Shown: positions 1 to 33,291, numbered from the stretch's first letter. The stretch: DNA of 54,711 nucleotides from Anaerolinea sp. (GCA_014879765.1 JACSRL010000495.1:1-54711), one strand, 5' to 3'. The notes: generated by a model not told the origin, from the letters alone. Numbers and translations are program-made.

Positions 1-109
1 GCGTCCAGTTCCTGCGCAGGTGGACGAAGAACTGGAGGGTATGTTCCGTGCGGATCGCCTCGGTGCTGATCCTTGGCCAGTGCTTGGGCAGCGCCAGGTG
101 GTTGGTCAT
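1..109 (-). CDS. hypothetical protein, N-terminal 36 codons only (gene continues past the left edge)
   Basis: ATG at 109-107 overlaps the TGA (108-106) of the upstream gene as ATGA. The frame stays open to base 1 (MTNHLALPKHWPRISTEAIRTEHTLQFFVHLRRNW...). No motif recognised. Confidence 0.4.
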   Translation of the reverse strand, partial: MTNHLALPKHWPRISTEAIRTEHTLQFFVHLRRNWT

Positions 110-930
110 GGGGAGATTGCCGCCAAGCGCAACAGGTCATAGGGGAGACCAGCGCGGTAGCAGTTGAGGAGGACGACGAACTTCTTGGGAGACCAGGCAG
201 CTTCGATGGGGATCACATCGTGGTAGCGGTTTCCTGGCACAACGCCGCGCCAGCAGACGGCCGTTTCATAGTCGATGGTAGCCAGGAGGTGCCAATCGAC
301 CGCGCGTTTTCCGCCGCCTGGATTGCCGTAGGCGCCATTCAGCCGTTGGCCGCTGACGTCGATCTTCCAGTCATGGCCACCGAAGACCAGGCGGAAGTCA
401 TGGTCGCACGGCTCAGTGTAGCTGTGGCTGTTGGCGGGTGCGCGGTAGAAGTCGGGCCAGTTTCTGCGGAAGTAGTCCTGGATGGTTGGTTCGATGATGG
501 TTGACCGTGCTCTTGCTTCTGCCACTCGATCGGCGGATGTGGCGTGTTTCTGCACCATGTGCGGCGCGCGCAACAGCATCTCTTTCACTGCGTCCGAGCC
601 GACGCGCGGCGTCATGACGATCTCGTCCTCCCACGGTGAGTTGACCAGGGAGGGGATGAACCACCACTGTTTGGCAGCCAGGCAATGGGGCGCGCCCAGG
701 TAGAAGCAGCCAAAGCGGCGTCTCGCCAGCATCTTCTCGCGCACGTCTTCGATCTGGCGGGGCCAATCGTAGCTCTGCTGTGCGTCTGGCTGGACGCCGA
801 GTCGGGCGAGGGCAGCGACAACCAACTGCCGGTGGCCAAGGCCGAAGCGAACTGGGACCAGCGCTTGCTCGAGCTCAAAGCTGATGCTCTCGAACAGGTC
901 GCCCATCGGCGTGTAGACCTTACCGGCCAT
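106..930 (-). CDS. hypothetical protein (274 aa), possible PD-(D/E)xK-like nuclease motif
   Basis: ORF track 106..1065 trimmed to ATG 930 (MAGKVYTPMGDL...), which overlaps the stop of the upstream methyltransferase gene by 11 nt. Contains EPCDHDFRLVFGGHDWKIDVSG (D ... DxK spacing). Function not established. Confidence 0.6.
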   Translation of the reverse strand: MAGKVYTPMGDLFESISFELEQALVPVRFGLGHRQLVVAALARLGVQPDAQQSYDWPRQIEDVREKMLARRRFGCFYLGAPHCLAAKQWWFIPSLVNSPWEDEIVMTPRVGSDAVKEMLLRAPHMVQKHATSADRVAEARARSTIIEPTIQDYFRRNWPDFYRAPANSHSYTEPCDHDFRLVFGGHDWKIDVSGQRLNGAYGNPGGGKRAVDWHLLATIDYETAVCWRGVVPGNRYHDVIPIEAAWSPKKFVVLLNCYRAGLPYDLLRLAAISP

Positions 931-2362
931 TGCGCGCCTCCTGGATGCGCTGGCGGGCTGTTTCAACGATGGTCGGATCGATGTCGGCGCCGATGAACTC
1001 ATGGCCCAACGAAACGGCCACAACCCCTGTGGTGCCGCCGCCGAGGAAGGGATCGAGGATGACATCGCCTTGGTTGGCGACGCGGTCGAACAGGTCGGCC
1101 ATGCCGCTTTCGGACTGGCCCCAGTGGTGGAACCGTTTGTCGTTGTCGTTGACGTTGCTTCTGGCCACGTCGCCCAGCCACTTGCCGTTGTACTCGCCTT
1201 TGACGTACCACAACACCGGTTTCCAGAAAGTGTTGACGTTGCGCTGCCAGAGTTGCACGGCCTGGCCGCCCGGCGTCAGATAGCACAAGGTCCAGTGATA
1301 GCGCATGTGCGGCGCCATCAACTCCATGATCTCCCCCAGGTACGACTGGCCAACCATGACCACCAGCGAACCGCCCGGCTTGAGGGCGTGCGCAGCGAGT
1401 TTGGCGAGATCTTCGTAGACCGGCAGGAACTCACGCTCGTAGGGCGGATCGGTCAGGATCACGTCGATGCTGTTGGGTTCCAGGATGTCGAGCAACTGCG
1501 CGACGCTGGCCGTGTGGAAGGTGAGCTTGATCATGTTGGCATAGTCCTTTTGCAGGTGCTGGATCAGCTTCTCGAAAGCCTCCGATGGCATCGTTTCCTT
1601 GTCGAACGCGCCCTTGTCGATCCTTTCATAGGCTCGTTGGAGGTACTCATCTGGCAAGTCCTTCAGCCGGCGTGCGGCCTCGGTCCGCCAGCCGTTGCGC
1701 GCCTTGGCTTTCTCGGCTGCGGCCTTGAACTGGGTTTTGTCCATCTTGCCGGCGGCCAGGCTCTTGACCAGCCAGAGCTGCTGCTCAGCGGTGAGACAGG
1801 TGATTGAGCGGAGGAGACCCTCGGTGAATGACACAACTGTGTCACGTGCTGACACAGGGCCATCAGGCTCGGTTGACACAAATGCCGCCTTAGTTGTGTC
1901 AACCACAATCCTCCAAGCATCCGCGCATATGCCACGCAACGCCAGATAGTTGTTGACACCGCTGCGGCTCCACCGCATGATTTCGGCGATCTCAGCTTGT
2001 GTCTTGCCCAGGCCGGCCAGGCTCCAGATGAACTCGGCGTTGTCGGTCCAGTCCTGGGGCACCACAGCGTCATGGCCGGCGTTGCTCTCGTAGGCGATGC
2101 GGTACTCGTCGTTGGGCGTCAGGTCTTCGTAGACTTGGGCCGGTATCCTGGCGATCTCCAATCGGCGCGCGGCTTCCACCCGGTGGTTGCCGTCGAGCAA
2201 CTTGAAGCCGTCCGCTGCCGGCGCAACGGCAATGGGGTAACGATCCAGATAGCCGCGTTCTTGCAGGCTGCGCATCATGCGCTGCACGCCCAGCTCGTTC
2301 GTCTTTCGGATCTGGATTGCTGCGGTGATCAGTCCAATGTCAATGGATGTCAGGGTGCTCAT
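920..2362 (-). CDS. ParB-like N-terminal domain fused to a beta-class DNA amino-methyltransferase
   Basis: ORF 920..2650 trimmed to ATG 2362, preceded by AGGAG. ParB/Srx-like block KLLDGNHRVEAARRLEIARIPAQVY. Motif IV ILTDPPYEREF lies upstream of the AdoMet motif VILDPFLGGGTTGVVA (order IV then I). Confidence 0.85.
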   Translation of the reverse strand: MSTLTSIDIGLITAAIQIRKTNELGVQRMMRSLQERGYLDRYPIAVAPAADGFKLLDGNHRVEAARRLEIARIPAQVYEDLTPNDEYRIAYESNAGHDAVVPQDWTDNAEFIWSLAGLGKTQAEIAEIMRWSRSGVNNYLALRGICADAWRIVVDTTKAAFVSTEPDGPVSARDTVVSFTEGLLRSITCLTAEQQLWLVKSLAAGKMDKTQFKAAAEKAKARNGWRTEAARRLKDLPDEYLQRAYERIDKGAFDKETMPSEAFEKLIQHLQKDYANMIKLTFHTASVAQLLDILEPNSIDVILTDPPYEREFLPVYEDLAKLAAHALKPGGSLVVMVGQSYLGEIMELMAPHMRYHWTLCYLTPGGQAVQLWQRNVNTFWKPVLWYVKGEYNGKWLGDVARSNVNDNDKRFHHWGQSESGMADLFDRVANQGDVILDPFLGGGTTGVVAVSLGHEFIGADIDPTIVETARQRIQEARNGR

Positions 2363-2441
2363 GCGGGGGGTCTCCTGAAGCACAGAGCTGGCGAAGAAGA
2401 GGTATGGAGCCCCACGCCAGCTCTGTGCTTTTGGTTTGAGT

Positions 2442-2786
2442 TTACAGCCATTCAGGAACCAAACTACGCCGTTCCTGTTCTCCGACAATGCGCAGTTGCG
2501 GGTTGGCCGGGCGACCGAACAGCCGGTGCAGCACCGCGCCGTCCACATGGGCCAGTGGAGCAACGATGAGCAGCGCGTACACGACTGCCAGGAAGAGCTG
2601 ATCAGGCGCAGTCCGGCCGGTGACCAGGTAGCCGCCGACCATGTAGCCAAGCGCCACGGTGAGCGCGAGCCAGGTGGGCTTCACCCCGCCAGCCGCGTAA
2701 CTGAGGACATTGACCGCGGCCACCACCGCTGCGGCCGCCACGGCGGGATTGAGCAGCAGCTCGTCGAGGCTAGGGAAGGTCTGCAT
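2442..2786 (-). CDS. small hydrophobic membrane protein (114 aa), phage-associated, function unknown
   Basis: ATG 2786 preceded by GAGGAGG. Three predicted hydrophobic stretches (AVAAAAVVAAVNVL, WLALTVALGYMVGGYLV, LFLAVVYALLIVAPL). Overlaps the stop of the upstream ORF. Confidence 0.55.
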   Translation of the reverse strand: MQTFPSLDELLLNPAVAAAAVVAAVNVLSYAAGGVKPTWLALTVALGYMVGGYLVTGRTAPDQLFLAVVYALLIVAPLAHVDGAVLHRLFGRPANPQLRIVGEQERRSLVPEWL

Positions 2787-3108
2787 CCGCAACCTCCTCA
2801 TCGTACAGCACGGCACCAATTTCCTCAATCAGGGTCTGCACGGCCTTGACCTTGCTCTCCCGATGCTCTTCGAGTATGTCGGCGATGGCGGTGAGTTGCG
2901 CAGCCATCACATCAGCACTGTTCACGTTGGTTTTCTGCTTGCGCTGGCCTGCGGCGATCTCGATCATGTCCAGGATGGGGGCCAGCCGGCTGAAGTTCTC
3001 CACGCCCAGCATGTCGCGGTGGGGGTAGCTCAGGTCGTCCCTGTTATCCAGGCCCAGCGCGCGGGCGATGGCGTCCATGTATTCGCTGCGGGTTTCGTAT
3101 TGCTTCAT
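2770..3108 (-). CDS. hypothetical protein (112 aa)
   Basis: ATG 3108 preceded by AAGGAGG. Acidic soluble protein with no recognised motif. Confidence 0.6.
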   Translation of the reverse strand: MKQYETRSEYMDAIARALGLDNRDDLSYPHRDMLGVENFSRLAPILDMIEIAAGQRKQKTNVNSADVMAAQLTAIADILEEHRESKVKAVQTLIEEIGAVLYDEEVADADLP

Positions 3109-3212
3109 CTATACCTCCTTGGAGTGATGGTGGTCCGGAACCGGGTTCCGAAGTCCAGGGCAAGCTCTTCGGAACTGGTTTCGACAAGCTCAACCTAAAG
3201 GTTCCGCGTTGG

Positions 3213-4295
3213 CTAGGCCAGCTCCAGCTGAAGCAGCCCAGTCCAGTCCTTCTGCTTGATCAGGCCCACCGCCTGCCTGGCCCACGGCTGATCGACGCCG
3301 GCCAGCGCGGCGGTGACGGTGGTGGAGCCGCTCATGTCGATGTCCATGGCCTCCAGCCTGGCCCGCAGCCGGCGCGCGGCCTGGGCCTGGGGATCGACTG
3401 GGGCTGTGCCGTTGCCGCCTCCACCACCTGTCCCATTGCCACCGGCTGTTCCATTGCCGCTGCTGCCCGTGCCGCTGCCGCCACCCGCTGGGTCGTGGCC
3501 CTGGCCCGACGGATCGGTAGGCGGCGGTTCCGGCGCCGGCTGGCCCTTCAGCCAGGCCGCAAGGATCTCGGCCACGTCGGCGCCAGGGCGAGGGAACACC
3601 TTGCCAGTCAAGGCCGGGCAGCGGGTCTTGGTCACGATGGCGTTGTTGTCGATGTCCATGTCGATGAAGACATCAAACTCGTACTCGAAGCCATCGCGCT
3701 GGATGGGCGCCATGCCCTGCTTGACGACCTTGGTGCGCTTGCGGCCATCCTCGATCACCTCGTCCATGGCGTAGCTGGTCTTGGAGCGCATGGTGGCGAT
3801 GACATGCAGGTCGCTGCGTAGGATGGCCTGCACCAGCCGGTTCTGCAGCTCGCCGGCCGGCCCCCAGGCGGTGTAGTCGTTGTACTCCCGGCGCTTGGCC
3901 AGCTGCTCCTTGATCTCCAGCACGCCGCCCGGTCCGCTCCAGGCGTGGGAGAGGCTGTCCAGGATGAGCACCTGGTAGCCGACGGCCTGCGCGGCGCGGA
4001 TGGCCTCAACGAAGCGGTCGGGGTGGAAGGGGGCGTCCAGGTTGAGGACGTCGAAGTCGAACAGGTCGGCGTACTTGGATGCGCTGCCGTGCTCGGTGTC
4101 CACCAGGGCGATGCGGCCGCCCAGGGCGGTGGCGATGGCCAGGGACGTGAAGGTCTTGCCCGAGCCGCTGGGACCGGCAATGGCAAGCCTCAGCATGGCC
4201 TCAAACTTCACTGCTCGTTGGAACATAGGGCGCACTCCTGCGGGCGTGACCGCCGCGCGGTTGGGTGTGGCCGTAGGGGCGGGGTAGGTTGGCAT
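3213..4295 (-). CDS. AAA_24/Sak4-like RecA-fold ATPase with Gly-rich tail
   Basis: ORF 3213..4385 trimmed to ATG 4295, preceded by GGAG. Walker A IAGPSGSGKTF and Walker B-like YQVLILDSLSH. Low-complexity GGGSGTGSSGNGTAGGNGTGGGGGNG segment. This architecture is typical of phage single-strand annealing helper ATPases. Confidence 0.75.
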   Translation of the reverse strand: MPTYPAPTATPNRAAVTPAGVRPMFQRAVKFEAMLRLAIAGPSGSGKTFTSLAIATALGGRIALVDTEHGSASKYADLFDFDVLNLDAPFHPDRFVEAIRAAQAVGYQVLILDSLSHAWSGPGGVLEIKEQLAKRREYNDYTAWGPAGELQNRLVQAILRSDLHVIATMRSKTSYAMDEVIEDGRKRTKVVKQGMAPIQRDGFEYEFDVFIDMDIDNNAIVTKTRCPALTGKVFPRPGADVAEILAAWLKGQPAPEPPPTDPSGQGHDPAGGGSGTGSSGNGTAGGNGTGGGGGNGTAPVDPQAQAARRLRARLEAMDIDMSGSTTVTAALAGVDQPWARQAVGLIKQKDWTGLLQLELA

Positions 4296-4323
4296 GGGTG
4301 TTTGTCTCCTTTCGATTATATTC

Positions 4324-4337
4324 AGAACGCATGTTCT
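4324..4337. promoter_or_regulatory. AGAAC-N4-GTTCT palindrome in a divergent promoter region (Cheo/LexA-box-like)
   Basis: AGAACGCATGTTCT lies in the 121-nt gap between the divergent ATPase (start 4295) and HNH/terminase genes. A TGTATAAT element follows at about 4358-4365. Confidence 0.3.
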
Positions 4338-4416
4338 TTCCAAATTTGAAAGCATCGTGTATAATGATGGCGTGTTTGAGGACACTTATGCTTACAACTG
4401 CAACATTTGTTCCACT

Positions 4417-4644
4417 ATGGTTCAACAGCGCGCCGCAGCCTTGGCCGACTTCTCGCCCGATGGCGGCCTGCCCGAACACGTGCATCACATCGATCGGCGC
4501 GGCATGGGCGGCCGCAGCCAGAACAGCCTGGCGGGTTTGCGCACTATGGGCGTGTCGGCCCAGCTGCACGCGCGCATCCATACCGAGGGCGACCACGTGC
4601 TGGACGAGTTGCCGCAGCGGCATACGCTGGAAGACCTGTGGTAG
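4417..4644 (+). CDS. small HNH-like endonuclease (75 aa), degenerate zinc ligands
   Basis: ORF 4294..4644 trimmed to ATG 4417. Contains EHVHHIDRRGMGGRSQNSLAGLRTMGVSAQLHARIH, resembling the H-H..GG..N..H pattern of phage HNH proteins. Sits immediately upstream of the large terminase, a common phage pairing. Confidence 0.5.
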   Translation: MVQQRAAALADFSPDGGLPEHVHHIDRRGMGGRSQNSLAGLRTMGVSAQLHARIHTEGDHVLDELPQRHTLEDLW

Positions 4645-4696
4645 CCCTGCGGCGTAGCCGCTACGTTGAGGCCCAGCGTGGCCAGAGAGAGGTTCG

Positions 4697-7600
4697 ATGC
4701 CAGGGAAACGAAGCAAGAACACCGGCTACATCGACCTGACGCGCGACGAATGGAACATCGTTACGGCGCAGAAGGTGGTGGAAGGCTTTTGGTTTCGCGA
4801 CCCTAAGGGCTGGTGGCAGGGGCCGGACGGCGTTGGGCCGCACCCGACGCTGGGCGTCGAAGTGCCTTACCTGTACTATCCGGGTATCCGGGACGCGATG
4901 ATCGCTGCGGGCGTGGACGAACCGTACCTCCCTGCGGGAGACTGGCTGCTCGCCGAGTACGTCCACGAGAGCCAGATGCCGCGCTGCACGCCCACCGCGA
5001 TCAACGGCTTCATCGAGCTGTATCTGGGTGCGCATAGCACGCTGTTCGGGCATCAGCTGGCGATGTACTACAGCCCCCAGCGCTACAACATCGTGGTCGG
5101 CGGAAGGGCGGCGGGGAAATGTAAATTGGGGTCCACCCTGGTAACGTTGGCCGATGGTTCCAGGAAGAAGATCAAGGACATCGAGCCTGGTGAGCGCGTC
5201 GCCTCGCTCGATCTGGACACGCTCAAGATGCGGACAGCGCGTGTCGCCCATGTGCTGCCGCAGCCCGAGAAGCCGCTGAACCGCATCACCACCCGGTCCG
5301 GCCGACGACTGACTGTGTCGTTCGATGATCCCATCCTGACGCCCTTCGGCTGGCGCAAGGCATGCGATCTGAAGCCGGGTGACAAGGTGGCGCACCCCAT
5401 CAGGCTAGAGCGCGAGCAGGTATCACAGACGCTGCCGGACCATGTGGCAGTCATTCTCGGCCTGCTCATTTCGGAGGGTGGTCTCAAGCAAAATCGATGC
5501 CAGTTCACCAACACAAGCGAGCAGCTCGTTGCTGATCTGCGGAAGGCATTGCATGAGATGGACCCGGATTTTGAGTTGAGACAGACCAAGAGCAACGCGA
5601 TCGACTACAGAATTGTTGACAATAGGCCGGGCAATCGCAGCCGTTTCTTGTCCTGGTTGCGCGAGATAGGGCTACTTGGGTGCAGCTCATACACCATGTT
5701 CGTGCCCGAAGAGGTGTTTCGGCAGCCAGATGCATGGATAGCCAGGTTCCTAGGCTACCTCTTCGCCGGGGATGGCTGCGCATATCTCAAGAAGAACGGA
5801 TGCCCAATAGCTCAGGGCAACATCAGCTATGCCTCGGCCAGTGAACGGCTCATCCGAGATGTTCAGGATCTGCTGCTCACTATCGGCATTCACAGTGCAT
5901 TGCGCCCAAAACCGGTGAAGTTCCACGGCAGGATATTCAACACCTGGGAGCTTGAGATCCCCTATGCCGACGACAGGCGGCGCTTCGCCAAGCTGATCCC
6001 GGTGCCGACCAAGCAGAAGGCGTTCGAGGTTGCAGGATACCAGTCAGGTGAAACCAACGGCAGCGACGATGTGGTGCCGCTCGAACTGATCCGCGACCAC
6101 TGCTACAATCGTGCACGTGCGATCGGCAAGCCCTTCGGCAAGCGCGTTGGCGATGAAAGGCCCTACAGCAACTTGCGGCCTCGATACAACCCCACCCGGC
6201 CCAAGCTGCGTCGGCTGGCCGAGTTCCTGGACGATGATCCGTTGCTGCTCAAGTATGCCGACTCCGATGTCTACTGGGGCACGGTGGTGTCCAACGAACA
6301 GCTTCCGCCAGAGCCGCTCTGGGACCTCACTGTCGAGAATGACCACAACTTCGTGGCCGATGGCATCGTGGTGCACAACACCGTCCCCCTGGCTATCGTC
6401 ATGCTCATCTGGACGGCGCTGCATCCTGGGGAACCGTGGTTGCACGTAGCCCTCTCCCTCGACCAGGCCAAGAAGGCGTACCAGGCCGCTCTGGACCTGG
6501 CCGGCCGCAAGCACTACAGGCACGACGGAACGCTGACGCCGCGCGCCTTCGCCGAGGTGTTCATCCAGGATCGCCGTGAGTTTCCGCAGCCCGACATCTA
6601 CTTTAAGCCCTGGGACGAGCACGACGGCGGTGAGGTGGCCGGCAAGCAGATGGCCGGCAATGTGATCATGTTCCGGCCGCTGGGCGACGAGGACCTGGAG
6701 CGGCTGCGCTCCACCGAGGCGGCCAACGCTTCCGGCGACGAGGTGCTGCGCGAGATCGCCGACGAGAAGACCATCCGCCATGTGCGTGGATGCTTACGCG
6801 GTCTCAACCCCTGGCTGCTGGCGCACCTGCCCAACAACCGGCGCCAGCGCATCGGCCAGTTGCAGCAGCTGATCGGCGTCGCCAATGTCAAGAACGACAA
6901 GGCTGCCATTGCGGCCTGCGAGGCTGAGTTGGCCAACATGGGCGTGGCGCGCGCCAAACGTTTCTTTGGCGTGGGCAATGCTGGCGAGCCGGAATGGGTG
7001 TGGGAAGTGATGGACCTGACTGAAGATGACCCGCATTACGGTTGGTTCATTCAGGTCACGCCTTACGACAACATCCGCCTCTCGCCCGAAGACCGGCAAG
7101 CCCTGGAGGAAGCCTGGGGCACCGACCCTGAGACGCGACAAGTCGAGTTGCTGGGACGCCGGCCGCTGGGGCTGGGCAACGAGATCGACCCGGATCTCCT
7201 GACCAGCGCGGTGCGCCACGACCTGGGCGGGCAGGTGGTGCAGGAGCACCGGGCCTACGGCGCGGTCCACTACGCCAAGCCGCCTGCGCCCGGCCACTAC
7301 CACATTATCGCGGGTGACCCGGGCAAGGGACGGCTGCCCAACCGCAACGCCTGGTGCGTGATGGCCCTGGACATCACTGCTAGCCCGGCCGAGATTGTCT
7401 TTTTTCAGATGGGCAACCTGGGCGCGCGGTCGAAAACCTACAAGCCCTACCTGGACGCCTACCGCCACGCGGTCAAGACCTACCCGGTGGTGTCGCCGGC
7501 CGATGTGATCTACGACAACGGCGGCCAGCAATCGGGCATGCACGAAGTCATCCTGGAAGAGTTGAGGCAGGACGCGGGCGGCGAGGCGATCTACGGCAGC

Positions 7601-7933
7601 CCCTACGACATGAGCAACAGCATGAAGTACACCGCGGCCAACTGGCTGATCGATCTTTTGCGCAAGGGCGCGCTGGTGATGCCGGAGCTGCGCATCCTCG
7701 TGCGCCAGGTGTCCAACTGGACCTTACCCGACAAGAAACTGGCCCAGGACGCGGCCATGGCGCTGTTCATGATTGTGCGCCGCGCCTACAACATCATCTC
7801 CGATCGCGGCATGGGCTATGGCGTGGAGCAGCAGACGCCGGAGTACCCCATGGACGGCGATGGGCATGCGGCCTGGGATTACCCTGAAGACATCCAGGTG
7901 CTGCACGACATCGAGGAGGTATCCTATGCGTAA
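4697..7933 (+). CDS. terL: phage terminase large subunit interrupted by an intein (1078 aa precursor, 658 aa after splicing)
   Basis: Walker A is split as GGRAAGK / TVPL by the insert. The C-terminal half has terminase-nuclease-like length. The HNH neighbour supports the call. Confidence 0.8.
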   Translation: MPGKRSKNTGYIDLTRDEWNIVTAQKVVEGFWFRDPKGWWQGPDGVGPHPTLGVEVPYLYYPGIRDAMIAAGVDEPYLPAGDWLLAEYVHESQMPRCTPTAINGFIELYLGAHSTLFGHQLAMYYSPQRYNIVVGGRAAGKCKLGSTLVTLADGSRKKIKDIEPGERVASLDLDTLKMRTARVAHVLPQPEKPLNRITTRSGRRLTVSFDDPILTPFGWRKACDLKPGDKVAHPIRLEREQVSQTLPDHVAVILGLLISEGGLKQNRCQFTNTSEQLVADLRKALHEMDPDFELRQTKSNAIDYRIVDNRPGNRSRFLSWLREIGLLGCSSYTMFVPEEVFRQPDAWIARFLGYLFAGDGCAYLKKNGCPIAQGNISYASASERLIRDVQDLLLTIGIHSALRPKPVKFHGRIFNTWELEIPYADDRRRFAKLIPVPTKQKAFEVAGYQSGETNGSDDVVPLELIRDHCYNRARAIGKPFGKRVGDERPYSNLRPRYNPTRPKLRRLAEFLDDDPLLLKYADSDVYWGTVVSNEQLPPEPLWDLTVENDHNFVADGIVVHNTVPLAIVMLIWTALHPGEPWLHVALSLDQAKKAYQAALDLAGRKHYRHDGTLTPRAFAEVFIQDRREFPQPDIYFKPWDEHDGGEVAGKQMAGNVIMFRPLGDEDLERLRSTEAANASGDEVLREIADEKTIRHVRGCLRGLNPWLLAHLPNNRRQRIGQLQQLIGVANVKNDKAAIAACEAELANMGVARAKRFFGVGNAGEPEWVWEVMDLTEDDPHYGWFIQVTPYDNIRLSPEDRQALEEAWGTDPETRQVELLGRRPLGLGNEIDPDLLTSAVRHDLGGQVVQEHRAYGAVHYAKPPAPGHYHIIAGDPGKGRLPNRNAWCVMALDITASPAEIVFFQMGNLGARSKTYKPYLDAYRHAVKTYPVVSPADVIYDNGGQQSGMHEVILEELRQDAGGEAIYGSPYDMSNSMKYTAANWLIDLLRKGALVMPELRILVRQVSNWTLPDKKLAQDAAMALFMIVRRAYNIISDRGMGYGVEQQTPEYPMDGDGHAAWDYPEDIQVLHDIEEVSYA
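5120..6379 (+). mobile_element. intein with LAGLIDADG homing-endonuclease domain (420 aa) inside the terminase P-loop
   Basis: Starts with Cys (CKLGSTLVTLADG). Ends VVHN and is followed by Thr(+1). Two LAGLIDADG-type motifs (VILGLLISEGG and FLGYLFAGDGCAY). Removing it recreates GRAAGKT. Confidence 0.85.
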
Positions 7934-8228
7934 CTTATTGGCACTTGCGCATGCACGCAGTGCAGGTGTCACCCTTCCCGACCGGCTGAGGCTGGCCTGG
8001 CGCGCGCTGCGCAGCTGGTGGCACGCGGCTATCCTGCGTTGGATCGACCGCTACCTCCAGCGACACGACCAGGAGCGCGCCTACACCTTGCTCGACTTCG
8101 AGGAGATGGATGTGCTCTATGACGAGGTCCACATCTCGGTGCTCTTCGACGAGGCGGGCGGTTGGGCTGGAAATCCGTGGCCCGAGCGGGCCGAAACCGT
8201 TGACTATGGATTTATGCAGGTGCTATGA
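7926..8228 (+). CDS. hypothetical protein (100 aa)
   Basis: ORF 7773..8228 trimmed to ATG 7926, preceded by GGAGG and overlapping the terminase stop (MRNLLALAHARSAG...). Confidence 0.5.
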   Translation: MRNLLALAHARSAGVTLPDRLRLAWRALRSWWHAAILRWIDRYLQRHDQERAYTLLDFEEMDVLYDEVHISVLFDEAGGWAGNPWPERAETVDYGFMQVL

Positions 8229-8401
8229 TGGAAATTAAGCCCACGATAGTCGAGGTGCCGCTGAGCCCGGTAATGGCCGAGCAGCTCAGACGGCTCCTCC
8301 ACAAGGCCACACGCGCCGGCTACGGCCAGATCGAGATCACCGTCAACCCCAGAGGCGTGAGGATCGTTGATACGACCGAATACCGGTTCGAGTGGAAGTA
8401 G
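8225..8401 (+). CDS. small protein (58 aa), YezD/DUF2292-like
   Basis: Not in the ORF track (under 60 aa). ATG 8225 overlaps the previous TGA as ATGA. Sequence is MMEIKPTIVEVPLSPVMAEQLRRLLHKATRAGYGQIEITVNPRGVRIVDTTEYRFEWK. The YGQIEITV..G.V.IVDTTE part resembles DUF2292. Confidence 0.4.
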   Translation: MMEIKPTIVEVPLSPVMAEQLRRLLHKATRAGYGQIEITVNPRGVRIVDTTEYRFEWK

Positions 8402-8417
8402 CGACAGCTCACCCGAC

Positions 8418-8467
8418 AAAAAGAAGCGGGATGCTGGACTGGAAGGTCAGCATCCCGCTTCTTTTTG
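8418..8467 (+). terminator. bidirectional rho-independent terminator
   Basis: AAAAAGAAGCGGGATGCTG, an 11-nt loop, then CAGCATCCCGCTTCTTTTT. This is a perfect 19-bp stem with an A-run before and a T-run after, 17 nt past the stop at 8401. Confidence 0.75.
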
Positions 8468-8557
8468 TTCCCCATGGCTCGTACACCCTTTGCCCTGCGC
8501 CATTGTCCCGCCGCCGAGCAATGCGGGCTTGGCGCGCCAACCTCAGTGTGGTGACCT

Positions 8558-8797
8558 ATGAACCGAATTGACGCCGGATATCGCAGCCTGATCTGCGCCA
8601 TCATCATTCGAGCGGTGCGCGATGTTCAAGAAGGGCGTGATGCTGATGAGGCGCGAGCGTTCCTTGTGTCGCCCGAGTGCAGGCGGTTGGCTCTGCTGGC
8701 CAACATCCGCTGGACGGTGGATGAGGGAGACATCGATCAAGCAGTCCAACGTTTGGGAAAGCGACGTACACGATTGCCGAGAAAGAGAACTCCGTGA
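8558..8797 (+). CDS. hypothetical small protein (79 aa)
   Basis: ATG ORF (MNRIDAGYRSLICAIIIRAVRDVQEGRDADEARAFLVSPE...). No clear RBS, so coding status is uncertain. Confidence 0.35.
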   Translation: MNRIDAGYRSLICAIIIRAVRDVQEGRDADEARAFLVSPECRRLALLANIRWTVDEGDIDQAVQRLGKRRTRLPRKRTP

Positions 8798-8883
8798 GTA
8801 TGAACCATATGTAGACATGGTGTTGGGGTCGCTGAACGCATAGTCGCAAAGCCAGGGTTGCAGATGGGACCCCAGATCCTCTG

Positions 8884-12448: not shown

Positions 12449-12952
12449 ATGACTGAGCTAGACAGATTTCGCGCGGACAAAGACCGCTTCTTCGCCGCCG
12501 ATGCCCACAGCCCCCTGACGGAGGACCAGAAGCGCAGCTTTAACAGCCTGCGCTACTTCCCAGAGAACCGTGCGCTGCGCCTGAAGGTGGCGATCGAAGA
12601 GTTCCCTACCAAGGAGGCAATCACGCTGCAGACGACAACGGGCGCCGCCCAAATCTACACGCGCTTCGGCCGGATCAAGTTCCGGGTAGAAAAGCAAGAT
12701 GTGGCCTTGACGATCTTCACCAGCGGTAATGGTTTCTTCCTACCCTTTGCCGATAGCCTGGCGGGCAGCGAAACCTACGGCGCCGGCCGCTATTTGGAGT
12801 TGGAGCCGCTGGGCAAAGGCAAGTTCCTGGTCGACTTCAACTATGCCTACAACCCCTACTGCGCCTACAATGAAGCCTGGTCTTGTCCGGTCACGCCAGC
12901 CGAAAACCGTCTGAAGGCGCCAATCCGCGCCGGAGAGAAGATCTTCCACTAG
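12449..12952 (+). CDS. DUF1684 domain protein (167 aa)
   Basis: Motifs GAGRYLELEP and VDFNYAYNPYCAYNEAWSCPVTPAENRL. RBS TAGGAGG. Confidence 0.85.
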   Translation: MTELDRFRADKDRFFAADAHSPLTEDQKRSFNSLRYFPENRALRLKVAIEEFPTKEAITLQTTTGAAQIYTRFGRIKFRVEKQDVALTIFTSGNGFFLPFADSLAGSETYGAGRYLELEPLGKGKFLVDFNYAYNPYCAYNEAWSCPVTPAENRLKAPIRAGEKIFH

Positions 12953-13626
12953 ACCGCGTGGGGAAAGCGTAGCTCGCCCGCACGGATCGGCGCTGGCAGC
13001 CAGTTCTCGGCCGGCGCCAGGGGACAGTGCCAGCGCGCGTTGTAGGCGCACGAGGGATTGTATGCGTAGTTGAAGTCGACCACCAGCAGACCGTCTTCCT
13101 GTCCCAAATCGGCATGCTTGATCGTGTCAAGCAGGTAGCGGCCGCCGCCATAGGTCTCTGCGCCATTGGTGCGGTCGCGGAAGGGCAGAAAAATGCCGCC
13201 GCCGTAGCCCTGTATCCAGTACAAGTAAAGAGTGACGGCTTGGCTCTGCACGGCGAAGCGAATGCGGCCGAAGCGTTTCAGACGCACAACGCCATCCTCG
13301 GGCAGGTCGACTTCGATGACATTGGGCTCGACATCGCGCTCCACGCGCACAGCAAATCTTAGGCCAGGATCGTACGGATAGTACGGAAGACCAGTGAACA
13401 CGGCCTTCTGCGCCTGGTCCAGCGCTCCTTGCGGATGGCTGGCGAAAAGCAAGTCGCGTGAGCGGCGAAAGCGCCGCCAGCGTGCTTTCAGCTCCCTCGT
13501 GTGCTCATCTTCAGCCTGCGCACTGGCCAACGGACGCCGGACCAGCGCGTACATTGCGGCGACCTTTCTACGGTAGTCGGTCAATTCTTCGTAAGCTGTC
13601 AGTTCGACCATGGCTGCTCCTGGCAT
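12949..13626 (-). CDS. DUF1684 domain protein (225 aa), paralog of the convergent neighbour
   Basis: Motifs GGGRYLLDT and VDFNYAYNPSCAYNARWHCPLAPAENWL. ATG 13626 preceded by AAGGAGGAG. Confidence 0.85.
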   Translation of the reverse strand: MPGAAMVELTAYEELTDYRRKVAAMYALVRRPLASAQAEDEHTRELKARWRRFRRSRDLLFASHPQGALDQAQKAVFTGLPYYPYDPGLRFAVRVERDVEPNVIEVDLPEDGVVRLKRFGRIRFAVQSQAVTLYLYWIQGYGGGIFLPFRDRTNGAETYGGGRYLLDTIKHADLGQEDGLLVVDFNYAYNPSCAYNARWHCPLAPAENWLPAPIRAGELRFPHAV

Positions 13627-21355: not shown

Positions 21356-23047
21356 TCAACCGGCGCAGCAGGAAAGCTGCGCCACGTCCTTTTCGAAGGT
21401 CTGCGCGGCCAGCTTCAGTCCCTCCACCTGCGTCAGGTAGGGGAAGAGCATCTCGCGCAGGTCGTCGACGGTGAAGCCGTAGCGCAGGCCCATGCGCACG
21501 GCCAGCGCGGCCGTCTGGATGATCTCGCCGCCCTCGGCCGCCAGCACGTGCGCGCCCAACAGCCGGCCCGAGTTGCCGTCGGCCACCAGCTTGATCAGCC
21601 CGCGCGTGTCGCGCGCGGCCAGCGCCCGCGGCACGTAGGCCAGCGGCAGCGTGGTCGCCTTGATCTCGTAGCCGCGCTCGACGGCCTGGGCTTCGGTCAG
21701 CCCCACCGTGGCCACCTGCGGATCGGTGAAGATCACGTCGGGCAGCACGCTCAGGTCAAGGCGCTTGTGGTTGCCCTCCAGCGCGTTGGCCGCGGCGATG
21801 CCGCCGCCGACCGCGGCCACGTAGACCAGCTTGGGATGCTGCGTCACGTCGCCGATGGCGTATATGCGCGGGTTGCTGGTCTGCATGAAGTCGTCCACCA
21901 CGATGAAGCCGTCCTTGTCCAGCGTCACGCCGGCATCATCCAGACCCATGTTTGCCGTGTGCGGGACCCGGCCCACGGCCATCAGCACCTGCTCGGCGCG
22001 AAACTCGCGGCGCTGGCCGTCCACCTCGGCCGTGACCACCTTGTCGTCGCCCTCCTGGCGGATGGCCAGCGGGGTGACGCCGGTGTGGACGATCAATCCT
22101 TCGTCCCGCAGATAGCCGGCCAGGGCCTCGGCGATCTCCGGCTCGTGCTCGGGGATCAGCCGCGGGCTGCGCTGCAAGATCGTCACCTGTGTGCCGAAGC
22201 GGGCAAAGGTCTGCCCCAGTTCCAGAGCGATGGCCCGGCCGCCGATCACAAGGAGGGAACGCGGCTGCTGCGGCAGCGCCATGGCTGAGGTGCTGGTCAG
22301 CACGTCTATCTCCTCGATGCCGTCCAGAGGCAGGATGCGCGGCGCGGCGCCGCTGGCGATGACGACCAGGCCGGCCGTGAGCGTGCGGCCGTCGTCCAGG
22401 GCCACGCTGCCGTCGGGCTGCACGCGTCCCCGGCCCTGGATCAGCGTGATGCGGTCGCCGTAGGAGGCCAGCACGTCCTCATACTTGCCCTGACGCAGCT
22501 CGCCCACCAGGTCGTCCTTCTGGCCGACAACCGCGGGCCAGTCCAGGCCGAGCGCGGCCGTCTGCACGCCGGCGAAGGGGTGATGCCCCGCCCGGTGGTA
22601 GGCCTCTGCGGCCCGGATCAGCGCTTTGGAGGGCACGCAGCCGATGTTGACGCACGTGCCCCCGAGGACGCCGGCCTCGACGATGGCGACCCGCCTTCCC
22701 AGCTCGGCCGCCTTGATGGCCGCGGCCATGCCGCCGCCGCCCGTGCCGATGACTACCAGATCGAAGTCGAAGTCCTCCTTGGCCGCAGCCGGTGGCTCTG
22801 TCGCAGTGCTCGACCGCTGGCGCACGCTGGCATGGTAGCCCGCTTGCTGCACGGCGCTGAGCAACAGCGCCTCGTCCACGCCGGGTTGGGCCGACAAGAT
22901 CGCCTTCTTCGACGTCCAGCCGGGCACCTCCACCTGCACGACGCCCTCGACCCCTTGCAGGGCCTGGGTGACGTGGTGGGCGCAGGTGTCGCAAGTCATG
23001 CCCAGCACGGCTAGTTCAATTTCCTGGGTTGGTTCTTGGTTGCTCAT
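21356..23047 (-). CDS. merA: mercuric reductase with N-terminal HMA (NmerA) domain
   Basis: HMA motif GMTCDTCAHH. Redox centre GGTCVNIGCVPSK. C-terminal vicinal cysteines in QLSCCAG. Confidence 0.95.
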   Translation of the reverse strand: MSNQEPTQEIELAVLGMTCDTCAHHVTQALQGVEGVVQVEVPGWTSKKAILSAQPGVDEALLLSAVQQAGYHASVRQRSSTATEPPAAAKEDFDFDLVVIGTGGGGMAAAIKAAELGRRVAIVEAGVLGGTCVNIGCVPSKALIRAAEAYHRAGHHPFAGVQTAALGLDWPAVVGQKDDLVGELRQGKYEDVLASYGDRITLIQGRGRVQPDGSVALDDGRTLTAGLVVIASGAAPRILPLDGIEEIDVLTSTSAMALPQQPRSLLVIGGRAIALELGQTFARFGTQVTILQRSPRLIPEHEPEIAEALAGYLRDEGLIVHTGVTPLAIRQEGDDKVVTAEVDGQRREFRAEQVLMAVGRVPHTANMGLDDAGVTLDKDGFIVVDDFMQTSNPRIYAIGDVTQHPKLVYVAAVGGGIAAANALEGNHKRLDLSVLPDVIFTDPQVATVGLTEAQAVERGYEIKATTLPLAYVPRALAARDTRGLIKLVADGNSGRLLGAHVLAAEGGEIIQTAALAVRMGLRYGFTVDDLREMLFPYLTQVEGLKLAAQTFEKDVAQLSCCAG

Positions 23048-29092: not shown

Positions 29093-31225
29093 TCACGCCG
29101 CCGTCACGCCCAGTTTGACACGGCGCAAAAGCTGGGCATTGACGGCGACAATGATGGTGCTCAACGACATGAACAGCGCACCCACTGCCGGGGAGAGCAG
29201 GATGCCGAAGGCCGGATAGAGCACGCCGGCCGCCAGCGGGATGGCGATCACATTGTAGCCTGTGGCCCAGACCAGGTTCTCGATCATCTTGCGGTAGCTG
29301 GCCCGGCTTAGCTCGAAGATCTTGACCACGTCCAGCGGGTTGCTCTGCACCAGGATGATGCCCGCCGACTCCACGGCCACGTCGGTGCCGCTGCCGATGG
29401 CGATCCCAACATTGGCCCGCGTCAGGGCTGGCGCATCGTTGACGCCGTCGCCGACCATAGCCACCCGCCTGCCCTGGGCCTGCAACTCCGCCACCTTCTG
29501 GTCCTTGTGCTCCGGCAGCACTTCGGCGAAGACCTGGTCGATGCCCAGTTCGTCGGCCACGGCTTGGGCCACGGCCTGGCTGTCGCCAGTGAGCATGGCC
29601 ACCTGCACGCCCAGCTCGTGCAGCCGCTGCACAGCTTGCCGGCTTTCGGGCCGGATAACATCGGCCAGGGCGAAGGCGGCGGCGATCTGGCCATCATGCA
29701 CCAGGTAGATCACGCTCTGGCCTTTGCGCCCGGCTTCCTGCGTGAAGGCAGCGATGGGACCGGCAAGGCGCAGTTCCAGCATCTCCAACAGGCGGGGGCC
29801 GCCGGCGTAAGCGGTTTGACCATTCACGCTGGCTCGGACGCCACGGCCTTTGAGCGCCTCGAAGCTGCTTACCGCGGGCAGGGCCAGCTCGCGCTCGGCC
29901 GCGGTCTGGCGGATGGCTTTGGCTACCATGTGCTCAGAGTCGCCTTCGATGGCTGCCGCCAGCGCCAGGGCATCCTGTTCCGTCCAATTGTCAGCGGCCT
30001 TGACGCCCACCACACCGAACTCGCCCTTGGTCAGCGTGCCGGTCTTGTCGAAGATCACCACGTCCAGATTGCGAGCCTCTTCCAGAGCCAGACGGTCCCG
30101 GACCAGGATGCCGTTGTTGGCGGCCAGGCCGGTGCTGATGGCCACCACCAGCGGGATCGCCAGACCCAGCGCGTGGGGGCAGGCGATGACCAGCACAGTA
30201 GCCACGCGTGTGACCACTTCTACGTTGAAGCCAGCGCCGATGGTCCAGGCGATGGCCGTCAGGAAGGCGGCGGCCAGCGCGATGTAAAACAGCCAGCCAG
30301 CGGCCCTGTCAGCCAGGATCTGGGTGCGGGATTTGCTCTGCTGAGCCTGTTCCACCAGGCGCATGATCCCGGCCAGGGTTGTCTGATCGCCGGTAGCGCC
30401 GACCCGGATGCGCAGGCTGCCGTCGCCATTGATCGTTCCTGCAATCGCTTTGTCCCCAGGCCGCTTCTTGACCGGCTTAGACTCGCCGGTGATCATGGCC
30501 TGGTTGACGTCGGACTCGCCCTCTTCCACCAGGCCATCGACCGGAATGCTGGCGCCGGGCCGCACCAGTACCAGATCGTCCGTGCCCAGGTCGCCGGTGG
30601 AGATGGTCTCGACGCGGCCATCCGGGCCGATGCGCTCGGCTTCGTCGGGCATCAGCCGGGCCAGTTCCTGCAAGGCGCCGGAGGCCTGGCGCACGCTGCG
30701 CATCTCCAGCCAGTGGCCCAGCAGCATGATGTCGATCAGCGTGACCAGCTCCCAGAAGAAGCCCCCCTGAGGATCGACCAACAGCGCGATCAGGCTATAG
30801 GCGTAGGCGACGATGATGGCCAGGGAAATCAGGGTCATCATCCCCGGCTGGCGGTTGCGCAGCTCGGGCCGGGCCATCTGCAGGAAAGGCAGGCCGCCGT
30901 AGAAGAACACGATCGTGGCGAACACCGGTCCAATCCACCGGCTGCCGGGGAACTCTGGCATGGTGAAACCAAACCAGCCCTGCAGCATGGGGCTGTAGAG
31001 CAACACCGGGATGCTCAAGAGCAGCGAGACCCAGAAGCGGTTGCGGAACATGAGCTCGTGGCCGCTGTGGTCGACCCCGTGGCCATCGTGGCCATCGTGG
31101 CCGGCCCCGCTCGTGGGCGCGCCGTGATCCATGGCATGGCCGGCGTGGGGATCGCTGTGGCCAGCGTGGATATCGTGGCTCTGTGTGTGACCGGTGTGGT
31201 TCACCGGCCTGTGATCGTGATCCAT
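29093..31225 (-). CDS. copB: copper-translocating P1B-type ATPase, CopB-like (His-rich N-terminus, CPH motif)
   Basis: ORF trimmed to ATG 31225, preceded by AAAGGAA. His-rich start [35 protein letters not shown]. Motifs [26 protein letters not shown] and [12 protein letters not shown]. Confidence 0.9.
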
Positions 31226-31230
31226 TTCCT

Positions 31231-31629
31231 TTACTGCACCGGCAAGATGACATCCTGGCGGAGGAGCAGGCCGTCTTCGTTGCGCACCTCCACTGTTACT
31301 TTCCATTCGCCGCTCATGGAGAAGGGCGCAAAAGTTGCGTAGCGTCCTTCTCCCTGTTCGATGGCCTCGCCCTGCATTACACCCATGCTGTGGCCGACCA
31401 TGTCGGCGAGGATGTTGACGGTGGCCCCGGTCAGCGGCTGGCCGCCCGCGTCCAGGGCGTCGATAATTAGTTCAGTCTGCACGTTGCTGGTGGGTGGACT
31501 AGGGTTGGTGCTGAGGCTGATCTGCGGCTGGCCAGAGCCGGCCGGGGTCGGTGTGGCTGCCGGCGCGCAGGCGCTGATCAGGAGGACGGCAACCATCAGC
31601 ACAGTGAAGATGAGAGACTTGAGTTGCAT
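31231..31629 (-). CDS. YtkA/FixH-like lipoprotein (132 aa)
   Basis: ORF trimmed to ATG 31629, preceded by GAAGGAAA. Lipobox LLISAC. C-terminal beta-rich region [21 protein letters not shown]. Immediately upstream of copB. Confidence 0.6.
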
Positions 31630-32190: not shown

Positions 32191-33291
32191 TTACGCTTCT
32201 ACCTCGATCATCATCATCAGACCGCCTGGCTCCTCGCCGTCGTTGGTGGTGTGATGCGAGATGTGGCAGTGTAGCATCCATACGCCTGGCTCGGTGGCGA
32301 CGAACTCGATGTCGTAGCGTTCGCCGGGAGCCACCGACACCGTATCCTTGGTCAGTTGTGCCCCCTCCGGCACAGGGTGGCCGTCGGTCGCCACAATCTT
32401 AAACGGCACACCGTGCAGGTGCATGGGATGGATGAACTGGCCTACGGCGACAAAGCGCAGCCTCACCTTGTCGCCTACCTTGACCTTAAGGGTCTCGGTG
32501 GCCGGAAACGCTTTGCCGTTGATGGTGAAGTAGTTCGGGTCCATGCCGCCCATGGGCATGGCGCCGAAGGTTTGGTTGTTGACAAAGCGCCACTCGTTGA
32601 GCACCAGCACCTGGTCCACGTCGGGCGGGTCCGCTTCAGGCGTCGCCGGGTCGATGATGAACGCCCCGTGCAGCCCAGCGCCGATCTGGATGTCTGGCTC
32701 GACGTGGCTGTGATACCAGTAGGTGCCAGCCGGCTTGGCCTCGAACTCGTAAACGAAGGTCTCACCGGGCGCAATCGGCGGCTGGGTCACATCCGGCACG
32801 CCGTCCATGGCGTTGGGCACCGCGATGCCGTGCCAGTGGATCGTGGTATCATCGGGTAGGTCGTTGCGCACGATGAAACGCACGCGGTCGCCCTCGGTGA
32901 CGCGGATCAGCGGGCCGGGCACCATGCCGTTGTAGGTCCAGGCCACCTGTTCGACGCCATCCAGAAAGGTCCAGCGCACAGGCTGGGCAGTGATCTCGAA
33001 AACCTTAACGCCGTCTTCCTCACGATAGGGCAGAGGCTGGTTGCCTTGGCTCACCGTCGCTGCCGGAACGTCCTTGTCAGGCAGGGCAGCCATCATATGG
33101 GCCATGCCTGGTGAGATGGTGGGTGCAGTCATCATGCTGGGCATCGGCGTCGGGGCTGCCGCAAGAGCAGATTCTGCCTGCGGCGAGGATCCCGCCGCGC
33201 AGCCCGCCAAGGCCACTACCGTCACCACCAGCAAACCAAGCCACAGAAAATGTCGATTGATTTTTACCACCGTCGTTTCGCCTCCTACCAT
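32191..33291 (-). CDS. small (two-domain-size) multicopper oxidase lipoprotein
   Basis: Copper ligand motifs HWHG, WYHSH, HPMHLHG and HCHISHH. Lipobox ALAGC. An alternative GTG start at 33270 follows GGAGG. Confidence 0.85.
   Translation of the reverse strand: MVGGETTVVKINRHFLWLGLLVVTVVALAGCAAGSSPQAESALAAAPTPMPSMMTAPTISPGMAHMMAALPDKDVPAATVSQGNQPLPYREEDGVKVFEITAQPVRWTFLDGVEQVAWTYNGMVPGPLIRVTEGDRVRFIVRNDLPDDTTIHWHGIAVPNAMDGVPDVTQPPIAPGETFVYEFEAKPAGTYWYHSHVEPDIQIGAGLHGAFIIDPATPEADPPDVDQVLVLNEWRFVNNQTFGAMPMGGMDPNYFTINGKAFPATETLKVKVGDKVRLRFVAVGQFIHPMHLHGVPFKIVATDGHPVPEGAQLTKDTVSVAPGERYDIEFVATEPGVWMLHCHISHHTTNDGEEPGGLMMMIEVEA

Follow-up and report, generated by a model that had tools for sequence, protein, structure and literature searches.

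We report that the large terminase subunit (TerL) gene of a truncated prophage on a 54,711-nt contig of Anaerolinea sp. (GCA_014879765.1, JACSRL010000495.1:1-54711; the whole contig is called the window below) is, with high confidence, interrupted by a full-length intein, inserted in frame between the Walker A lysine and threonine (GGRAAGK/T) of a divergent phage TerL. In the DNA, the 5' junction (5119/5120) reads GGC GGA AGG GCG GCG GGG AAA / TGT AAA TTG GGG, giving GGRAAGK / CKLGSTLVTLADG in the protein, and the 3' junction (6379/6380) reads GTG GTG CAC AAC / ACC GTC CCC, giving GIVVHN / TVPLAIVM. When positions 5120-6379 (420 codons) are removed in silico, the two exteins join into a 658-aa product that carries GGRAAGKT.

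An earlier note on this DNA, made from the sequence alone, had described a 1078-aa open reading frame (ORF), an insert at 5120-6379 with these junction residues, and the restoration of Walker A by deletion of the 420 codons; it had also listed Cys1, a terminal His-Asn, Thr at +1 and two LAGLIDADG motifs. Each of these details was found to be correct, both in the ORF listing and by direct reading of the DNA. The positions of the gene, its parts and its neighbours are collected in Table 1.

The insert is an intein with a nested endonuclease

Searching the insert against Hint/intein and LAGLIDADG profiles, as the earlier note had proposed, gave clear matches to both. The Pfam family Intein_splicing (PF14890) was matched at E 3.9e-21 (75.9 bits against a curated cutoff of 35.8), the profile being covered completely (1-155 of 155) but split across insert residues 8-420, and LAGLIDADG_3 (PF14528) was matched in two stretches at E 7.6e-18, above its curated cutoff. 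As profile matches, both far exceed chance. Among solved structures, the best matches of the insert in phmmer were the DnaB mini-inteins 4o1r (Npu) and 1mi8 (Ssp), at about 1e-13, which align separately with intein parts ~4-100 and ~375-420 on either side of the inserted domain; the middle of the insert matches the full-length VMA-type intein 7qss, and solved RecA inteins were matched as well. Blocks F and G read LWDLTVENDHNFVADGIVVHN/T, in which the block F Asp and His, the penultimate His, the terminal Asn and Thr+1 are all present. The Pfam matches, the likeness to solved DnaB and RecA inteins, and the series of empty, mini-intein and full-intein alleles at one site (see below) therefore identify 5120-6379, as far as sequence can tell, as a class-1-type intein composed of a HINT splicing domain and a nested LAGLIDADG homing endonuclease.

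The endonuclease looks intact, with no obvious lesion and with the acidic residues of both motifs kept; its candidate substrates would be the intein-free alleles of two related loci, L009 and L010. The endonuclease domain (5402-6241) has a GC content at third codon positions of 0.71, whereas the exteins have 0.83-0.86 and the splicing halves 0.80-0.83; this is consistent with a less ameliorated, mobile origin. With the intein alone as query, a homologue search found DnaB and Pol inteins of 27-63% local identity and missed the inteins of P0009 and P0013, which are 65% identical, and we take this as a limit of the word index rather than as absence.

Empty, mini-intein and full-intein alleles share one codon

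The in-silico spliced extein retrieved 18 homologues, of which 12 are uninterrupted, four carry a mini-intein and two a full intein. The uninterrupted proteins (604-689 aa) all have a contiguous GGRxxGK-T in the alignment (A1), and the closest of them, P0001, P0002 and P0003, are 97%, 95% and 91% identical to the spliced protein. This contiguity in 12 of 12 intein-free homologues is the very point on which the earlier note had staked its reading. The mini-intein, of 136 aa, is found in P0004, P0005, P0012 and the fragment P0014, and the full LAGLIDADG intein in P0009 and P0013. Every insert in this set lies at the same codon, exactly between the Walker A Lys and Thr. The value of the family is that it offers a clean natural series (empty, mini, full LAGLIDADG) at one codon of one TerL family, in a poorly studied phylum.

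Scans of genomes, metagenomes and viral contigs added few further loci. Three IMG/VR viral contigs encode a 68%-identical uninterrupted TerL, and the sole genome match to the TerL family is a metagenome-assembled genome of Anaerolineae; L013, L014 and L001 are one and the same locus. An unrelated TerL with a Terminase_6C domain (P0024) carries a related mini-intein at the same GK/T site (VVAGRRWGK/C...VVHN/T), which fits movement of inteins between P-loops. Recombination at the shared ATCGTGGT repeat (NIVV / GIVV) can be discounted as an explanation of precise intein loss, since it would remove the P-loop.

A divergent large terminase as the host protein

The TerL call is built on profile, fold and synteny evidence, because the direct searches were negative: a Pfam scan of the extein gave no terminase match, and in 50,697 phage genomes tblastn found nothing that matches the spliced extein. 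Both results weigh against a terminase, as does the poor AlphaFold2 model of P0001 obtained from a 12-sequence alignment (predicted local distance difference test score, pLDDT, 49.5).

At the profile level, the extein matches phrog_2, "terminase large subunit", in PHROGs at 1.4e-11. A profile search of 1.84 billion representatives returned 208 relatives. Among the 60 that were aligned, Pfam recognises Terminase_6N in six and Terminase_3 in five, and the invariant positions are the Walker A Lys (K141), two nuclease Asp residues (D454 and D598 in P0001 numbering) and a few Gly and Asn. Compared with the PDB, the profile of these 60 sequences (A3) matched the ATPase of P74-26 TerL (4zni) at 3.9e-8, with GGrGsGKT placed over GRQSGKS and DE over LDEA, and gave weaker matches to the G20c and P74-26 nuclease domains, D6E, T4 gp17 and Sf6 gp2. 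The deeper profile was needed for this result, as a 12-sequence profile (A2) gave noise only and no terminase match in the PDB. After in-silico splicing, the protein has the hallmarks of an ASCE ATPase, GGRAAGKT and a Walker B / catalytic Glu aligned in the A3 profile.

An RNase H-like nuclease is indicated by the invariant Asp residues and by Foldseek, in which the low-confidence P0001 model, through its better-modelled C-terminal part, found terminase nuclease domains in all of the top seven places. The list is led by RB49 gp17 (E 1.2e-4, probability 1.00, template modelling score 0.54) and includes T4 gp17, T7 and human cytomegalovirus. Synteny points in the same direction: in L001-L003, L011, L012 and L018 the order is AAA_24 ATPase (minus strand), small ORF, TerL, two small ORFs and an SPP1-type portal, followed by a dozen genes on the same strand. 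TerL is near a portal also in L005; this is not the case in the window, where the portal gene is deleted.

It is conceivable that the host protein is another P-loop ATPase and not a terminase, as the negative Pfam and phage-genome searches and the failure of the shallow A2 profile in the PDB would allow. Such a protein would have to match phrog_2, the 4zni ATPase and terminase nucleases, have distant relatives that Pfam calls terminases, and sit by chance upstream of a portal, and we consider this extremely improbable. The claim of the earlier note that the P-loop of a large terminase is interrupted is thus upheld on PHROG, profile, fold and synteny evidence, albeit with no direct Pfam match.

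Asp at the block B histidine position makes splicing doubtful

The window insert is an intein by descent whose catalytic set, judged from its residues, is non-canonical. Of the block B TxxH signature, Ser67 is present at B:7 and Asp70 replaces the His of B:10. This His is found in nine of nine aligned comparator inteins and in the solved 1mi8 and 4o1r: five other inteins at the same site read S-F-D-H, and the TerL mini-intein P0024 and the DnaB inteins P0020, P0022 and P0025 also have it. All catalytic residues besides B:10 are intact (Cys1, Ser B:7, the block F Asp and His, His-Asn and Thr+1), and the residue at -1 is a bulky Lys.

His B:10 has been described as the single most conserved intein residue, essential in Ssp DnaB and only "important" in some other inteins; in Ssp DnaB, the closest solved relative of the window intein, H73A abolishes splicing of the wild type, and bulky -1 residues can make up in part for a missing block B His (PMC6333167). 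As of 2014, two natural inteins lacking His B:10 were on record, one of them a phage-derived pseudogene that does not splice, the other an intein with a compensating Lys (PMC4031507, PMC3196547). Because the block B His is replaced by Asp, splicing of the window intein is doubtful, and on balance we lean towards its being abolished or badly slowed.

Several observations speak against such impairment. The extein has zero private changes at otherwise invariant columns, its ratio of nonsynonymous to synonymous substitution rates (dN/dS) is 0.055-0.056 against the nearest alleles, the Lys at -1 is of the bulky kind reported to compensate in part (PMC6333167), and the remaining catalytic residues and both LAGLIDADG acids are intact. 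It is possible, and we hold this tentatively, that the intein still splices usefully despite Asp B:10, for instance because the Lys at -1 or some other residue compensates, so that TerL is matured. The rescue of a block B His mutant by a bulky -1 residue (PMC6333167) and the splicing of the Tko CDC21-1 orthologues that have no such His (PMC6333167, PMC4031507) set precedents for this. They must be weighed against the retention of His in all nine comparators (five of them at the same site) and in both solved DnaB inteins, the splicing-dead H73A mutant of Ssp DnaB, and the charge of Asp, opposite to that of His. The low dN/dS, moreover, is a historical average that cannot date a single recent substitution.

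The Asp70 codon, GAT, is one base away from CAT or CAC, and a single C-to-G assembly error would produce it from a canonical intein. That all relatives encode His would suit a sequencing or assembly error. Against this, the window shows no sign of poor sequence quality and keeps the 3.2-kb ORF open throughout. The N-terminal splicing domain carries 11 private substitutions at otherwise invariant columns, H-to-D and ten conservative ones; this count is weak evidence, as the window intein has no close sister. We regard an error as quite unlikely. When viral contigs were scanned for the block B DNA as an exact pattern in which the His/Asp base could vary, no match was obtained.

According to established intein chemistry, the 121-kDa precursor would be unable to form its P-loop. 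Cys1 would carry out an N-S acyl shift, the resulting thioester would be attacked by Thr+1, Asn420 would cyclise, and the exteins would be ligated into a working 73.6-kDa packaging ATPase-nuclease, provided that all four steps succeed. Once released, the 47.6-kDa intein would serve as a homing nuclease that attacks alleles lacking an intein. If splicing fails or is slowed, TerL would stay locked as a precursor. The earlier note had asked whether the intein or its endonuclease is still functional, and the sequence gives a divided answer: the Asp in block B argues against splicing, and the other splicing residues and the endonuclease motifs look intact. This natural change of His B:10 to Asp may mark a dead intein within a prophage remnant, or else a new mechanism of compensation.

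The gene lies in a truncated prophage

The phage-derived part of the window extends from 1 to about 8800 and comprises the ParB/methyltransferase gene, the AAA_24 ATPase gene, a small ORF, TerL and three small ORFs (Table 1). None of the portal, capsid, tail and other morphogenesis genes of the relatives was found in the window. The portal and structural module of the relatives being missing and cellular genes beginning at about 8800, the element is by these signs a truncated prophage of a likely Anaerolineae bacterium. We found no tRNA in the window, and neither an integrase nor an attachment (att) site, so that the prophage borders are defined by homology only; the window begins roughly where the L001 prophage begins.

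Table 1. Features of the prophage-derived part of the window, with the TerL precursor gene and its parts (nucleotide positions in the window).
Feature	Position	Strand	Remarks
ParB-N / N6_N4 DNA methyltransferase fusion	920..2650	-	prophage left arm
AAA_24 ATPase (phrog_1366)	3213..4385	-	divergent from TerL module, next to which it stands in every related phage locus
Small ORF directly 5' of TerL	4294..4644	+	75-116 aa, conserved in all related loci
TerL precursor ORF	4697..7933	+	1078 aa, 121 kDa; N-extein, intein and C-extein
N-extein	4697..5119	+	141 aa; C-terminal end is Walker A segment GGRAAGK (5099-5119)
Intein	5120..6379	+	420 aa, 47.6 kDa, full-length; Cys1 is TGT 5120-5122; final His-Asn 6374-6379
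Block B, S-F-D-D	5318..5329	+	GAT at 5327-5329 is intein Asp70 / protein Asp211, at conserved His B:10 position
LAGLIDADG motif 1, LGLLISEGG	5456..5482	+	acidic Glu kept
LAGLIDADG motif 2, LGYLFAGDG	5750..5776	+	acidic Asp kept
Splicing blocks F and G, DHNFVADGIVVHN	6341..6379	+	conserved across all related inteins
C-extein	6380..7933	+	517 aa; first residue Thr+1 (ACC 6380-6382) is Walker A Thr
GDE in C-extein	6734-6742	+	invariant; candidate Walker B / catalytic Glu
Nuclease motifs in C-extein	GDPG 7313-7324; YDNGG 7511-7525; QDAAM 7745-7759	+	
Two small conserved ORFs	7926..8401	+	100 aa (7926-8228) and 58 aa (8225-8401); between TerL and portal in relatives
Perfect hairpin	8416..8468	.	21-nt stem, 11-nt loop (ACAAAAAGAAGCGGGATGCTG / CAGCATCCCGCTTCTTTTTGT); between 58-aa ORF and portal start
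Portal gene start remnant and deletion junction	8474..8557	+	~1.87 kb gone compared with L001 and L005
79-aa ORF, last phage-derived gene	8558..8797	+	prophage homology ends at about 8742-8800

The product of the small ORF 5' of TerL is, by position only, a candidate small terminase subunit; a family scan of this ORF gave no match. The hairpin that follows the 58-aa ORF is conserved in L001, L005, L010 and L019 and resembles a bidirectional terminator or a hairpin with a regulatory role. The deleted ~1.87 kb held a 118-aa ORF and all but the first few codons of the portal gene, the match to L001 jumping from its position 12939, within those codons, to 14816. The ParB-N/methyltransferase ORF overlaps a 319-aa ORF (106-1065), and its relatives are called at 480 aa; given the overlap, its true start is probably internal.

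To the right of about 8800 the genes are cellular, and include those for a thioredoxin-reductase-like protein, YceI, an ECF sigma factor, pentose-phosphate enzymes, a MerA-like protein, a P-type ATPase, a multicopper oxidase, a two-component system and transporters. Two adjacent convergent DUF1684 genes stand beside a DUF3179 gene at 12449-13626. The MerA-like gene with an HMA domain (21356-23047), the P-type ATPase gene (29093-31306) and the multicopper oxidase gene (32191-33291) form a metal/redox cluster, possibly a metal-resistance island that adjoins the prophage remnant.

Recombination, selection and portal-less relatives

The prophages that carry this TerL gene and its relatives form a small siphovirus-like family, and the window extein has a dN/dS of 0.05-0.13 against the relatives. 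The window is a mosaic. Positions 1-5364 are 96.6% identical to the complete prophage L001 and positions 6311-8516 are 82.8% identical to it. At finer scale, the left arm and the first ~100 TerL codons are about 97% identical to L001; identity falls to about 68-70% over codons 121-141, and beyond the intein it is about 83%. Near-identity ends ~20-40 codons 5' of the insertion site. Directly 3' of the site, at codons 562-620, the window is 98-100% identical at the nucleotide level to the intein-free L009. These shifts place recombination breakpoints on both sides of the insertion point, as would be expected from homing or double-strand-break repair; the pattern is consistent with such events and does not prove them.

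The earlier note had called the element a decayed prophage. It is indeed truncated, without portal and structural module, but "decayed" is too simple a word for it. L010, which has an intein-free TerL of 95% amino acid identity, and the window have one common portal deletion junction (8474-8557 in the window, 3170-3262 in L010), yet the dN/dS of TerL between the two is 0.056, at a dS (synonymous divergence) of 0.47, compared with 0.07-0.09 in portal-bearing pairs. Next to the deletion, the small ORFs remain intact and show dN/dS of 0.12-0.28. A shared junction together with an intact TerL and intact small ORFs is, in sequence terms, not the pattern of free decay. In L019, which has the mini-intein, the portal gene is gone through a different junction and cellular genes follow (L019 5636-6560), and L004 is cut by two transposase genes just after TerL (L004 11974-14844). 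Loss of the morphogenesis module with TerL kept intact thus appears to recur, and this persistence of portal-less elements is a separate small puzzle of prophage remnants.

One way to account for these findings is that the element is not passively decaying at all: it may be a maintained, satellite-like element that has no portal and needs the capsid of a relative, or a remnant refreshed by recombination with complete phages. The junction common to the window and L010, a TerL dN/dS no higher than in portal-bearing pairs, the intact small ORFs, the further independent truncations in L019 and L004, and a left arm far closer to complete L001 than the C-extein is would all fit. On the other side, the junction is known from two loci only and the truncated loci are four in all, no integrase, att sites or packaging evidence was seen, the left end is cut by the window start, and gene flow alone could give a low dN/dS without selection in place. 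We consider active maintenance or refreshment unlikely.

We give far less credence to the combined proposal that the portal-less element is selected as a helper-dependent, satellite-like unit whose terminase is matured by an intein working without its block B His. If true, it would mean a second natural solution to the loss of His B:10 and an intein-gated packaging enzyme in a parasitic element, as well as turnover between the intein-free, mini and full states inside such elements through homing from superinfecting phages.

Comparison with known systems

The Ssp and Npu DnaB mini-inteins (1mi8, 4o1r, 6frh), the best solved-structure matches to both splicing halves, have blocks A, B, F and G in common with the window intein, including HNFVA(N/D)xI(I/V)VHN. 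They differ in that they sit at the DnaB-b site (RESG/C ... HN/S) and not in a P-loop, have no LAGLIDADG domain, and carry His73 where the window intein has Asp70.

Two natural inteins are comparable in block B. The Arsp-FB24 Arth_1007 pseudogene (Tori and Perler 2011, PMC3196547) likewise stems from a phage, lies in a bacterial chromosome and has no His B:10, and it was shown not to splice; it is a class 3 intein that has also lost the block F Cys and retains 66 aa of extein, whereas the exteins in the window are complete and one catalytic position deviates. The Tko CDC21-1 intein and its orthologues, as far as they are cited in PMC4031507 and PMC6333167, are naturally devoid of the block B His, with a bulky residue at -1. 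In contrast to the window intein, in which we identified no compensating residue, these archaeal inteins have a compensating Lys58 and, according to those citations, were shown to be active.

As for the host protein, the window TerL has an N-terminal ~100 residues and a ~100-residue insert with no counterpart in the P74-26/G20c TerL and the gp17 proteins of T4 and RB49, and is ~11-16% identical to them in structural alignments. It matches them in the Walker A GxxxxGK[ST], the DE of Walker B and the C-terminal RNase H-like nuclease fold.

The closest known system is that of the mycobacteriophages, in which TerL is the most intein-rich protein (Kelley et al. 2016, mBio, PMC5050341). The earlier note had stated that inteins at terminase P-loops are known from phages, and GK/T is in fact the published "classic" P-loop site, occupied by TerL1-a, of which related prophage copies have been reported (PMC5050341). 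The architecture of TerL1-a is the same as that described here, a GK/T P-loop intein in TerL. The window TerL differs in being very divergent, with no Terminase_1 match in Pfam, and in belonging to prophages of Chloroflexota type, and its intein is closer in sequence to DnaB inteins and has Asp at the block B His. Inteins at GK/T in P-loop ATPases, phage TerL among them, are already well documented and this general picture is unchanged; what is new here is the same architecture in a divergent TerL lineage and in another host phylum.

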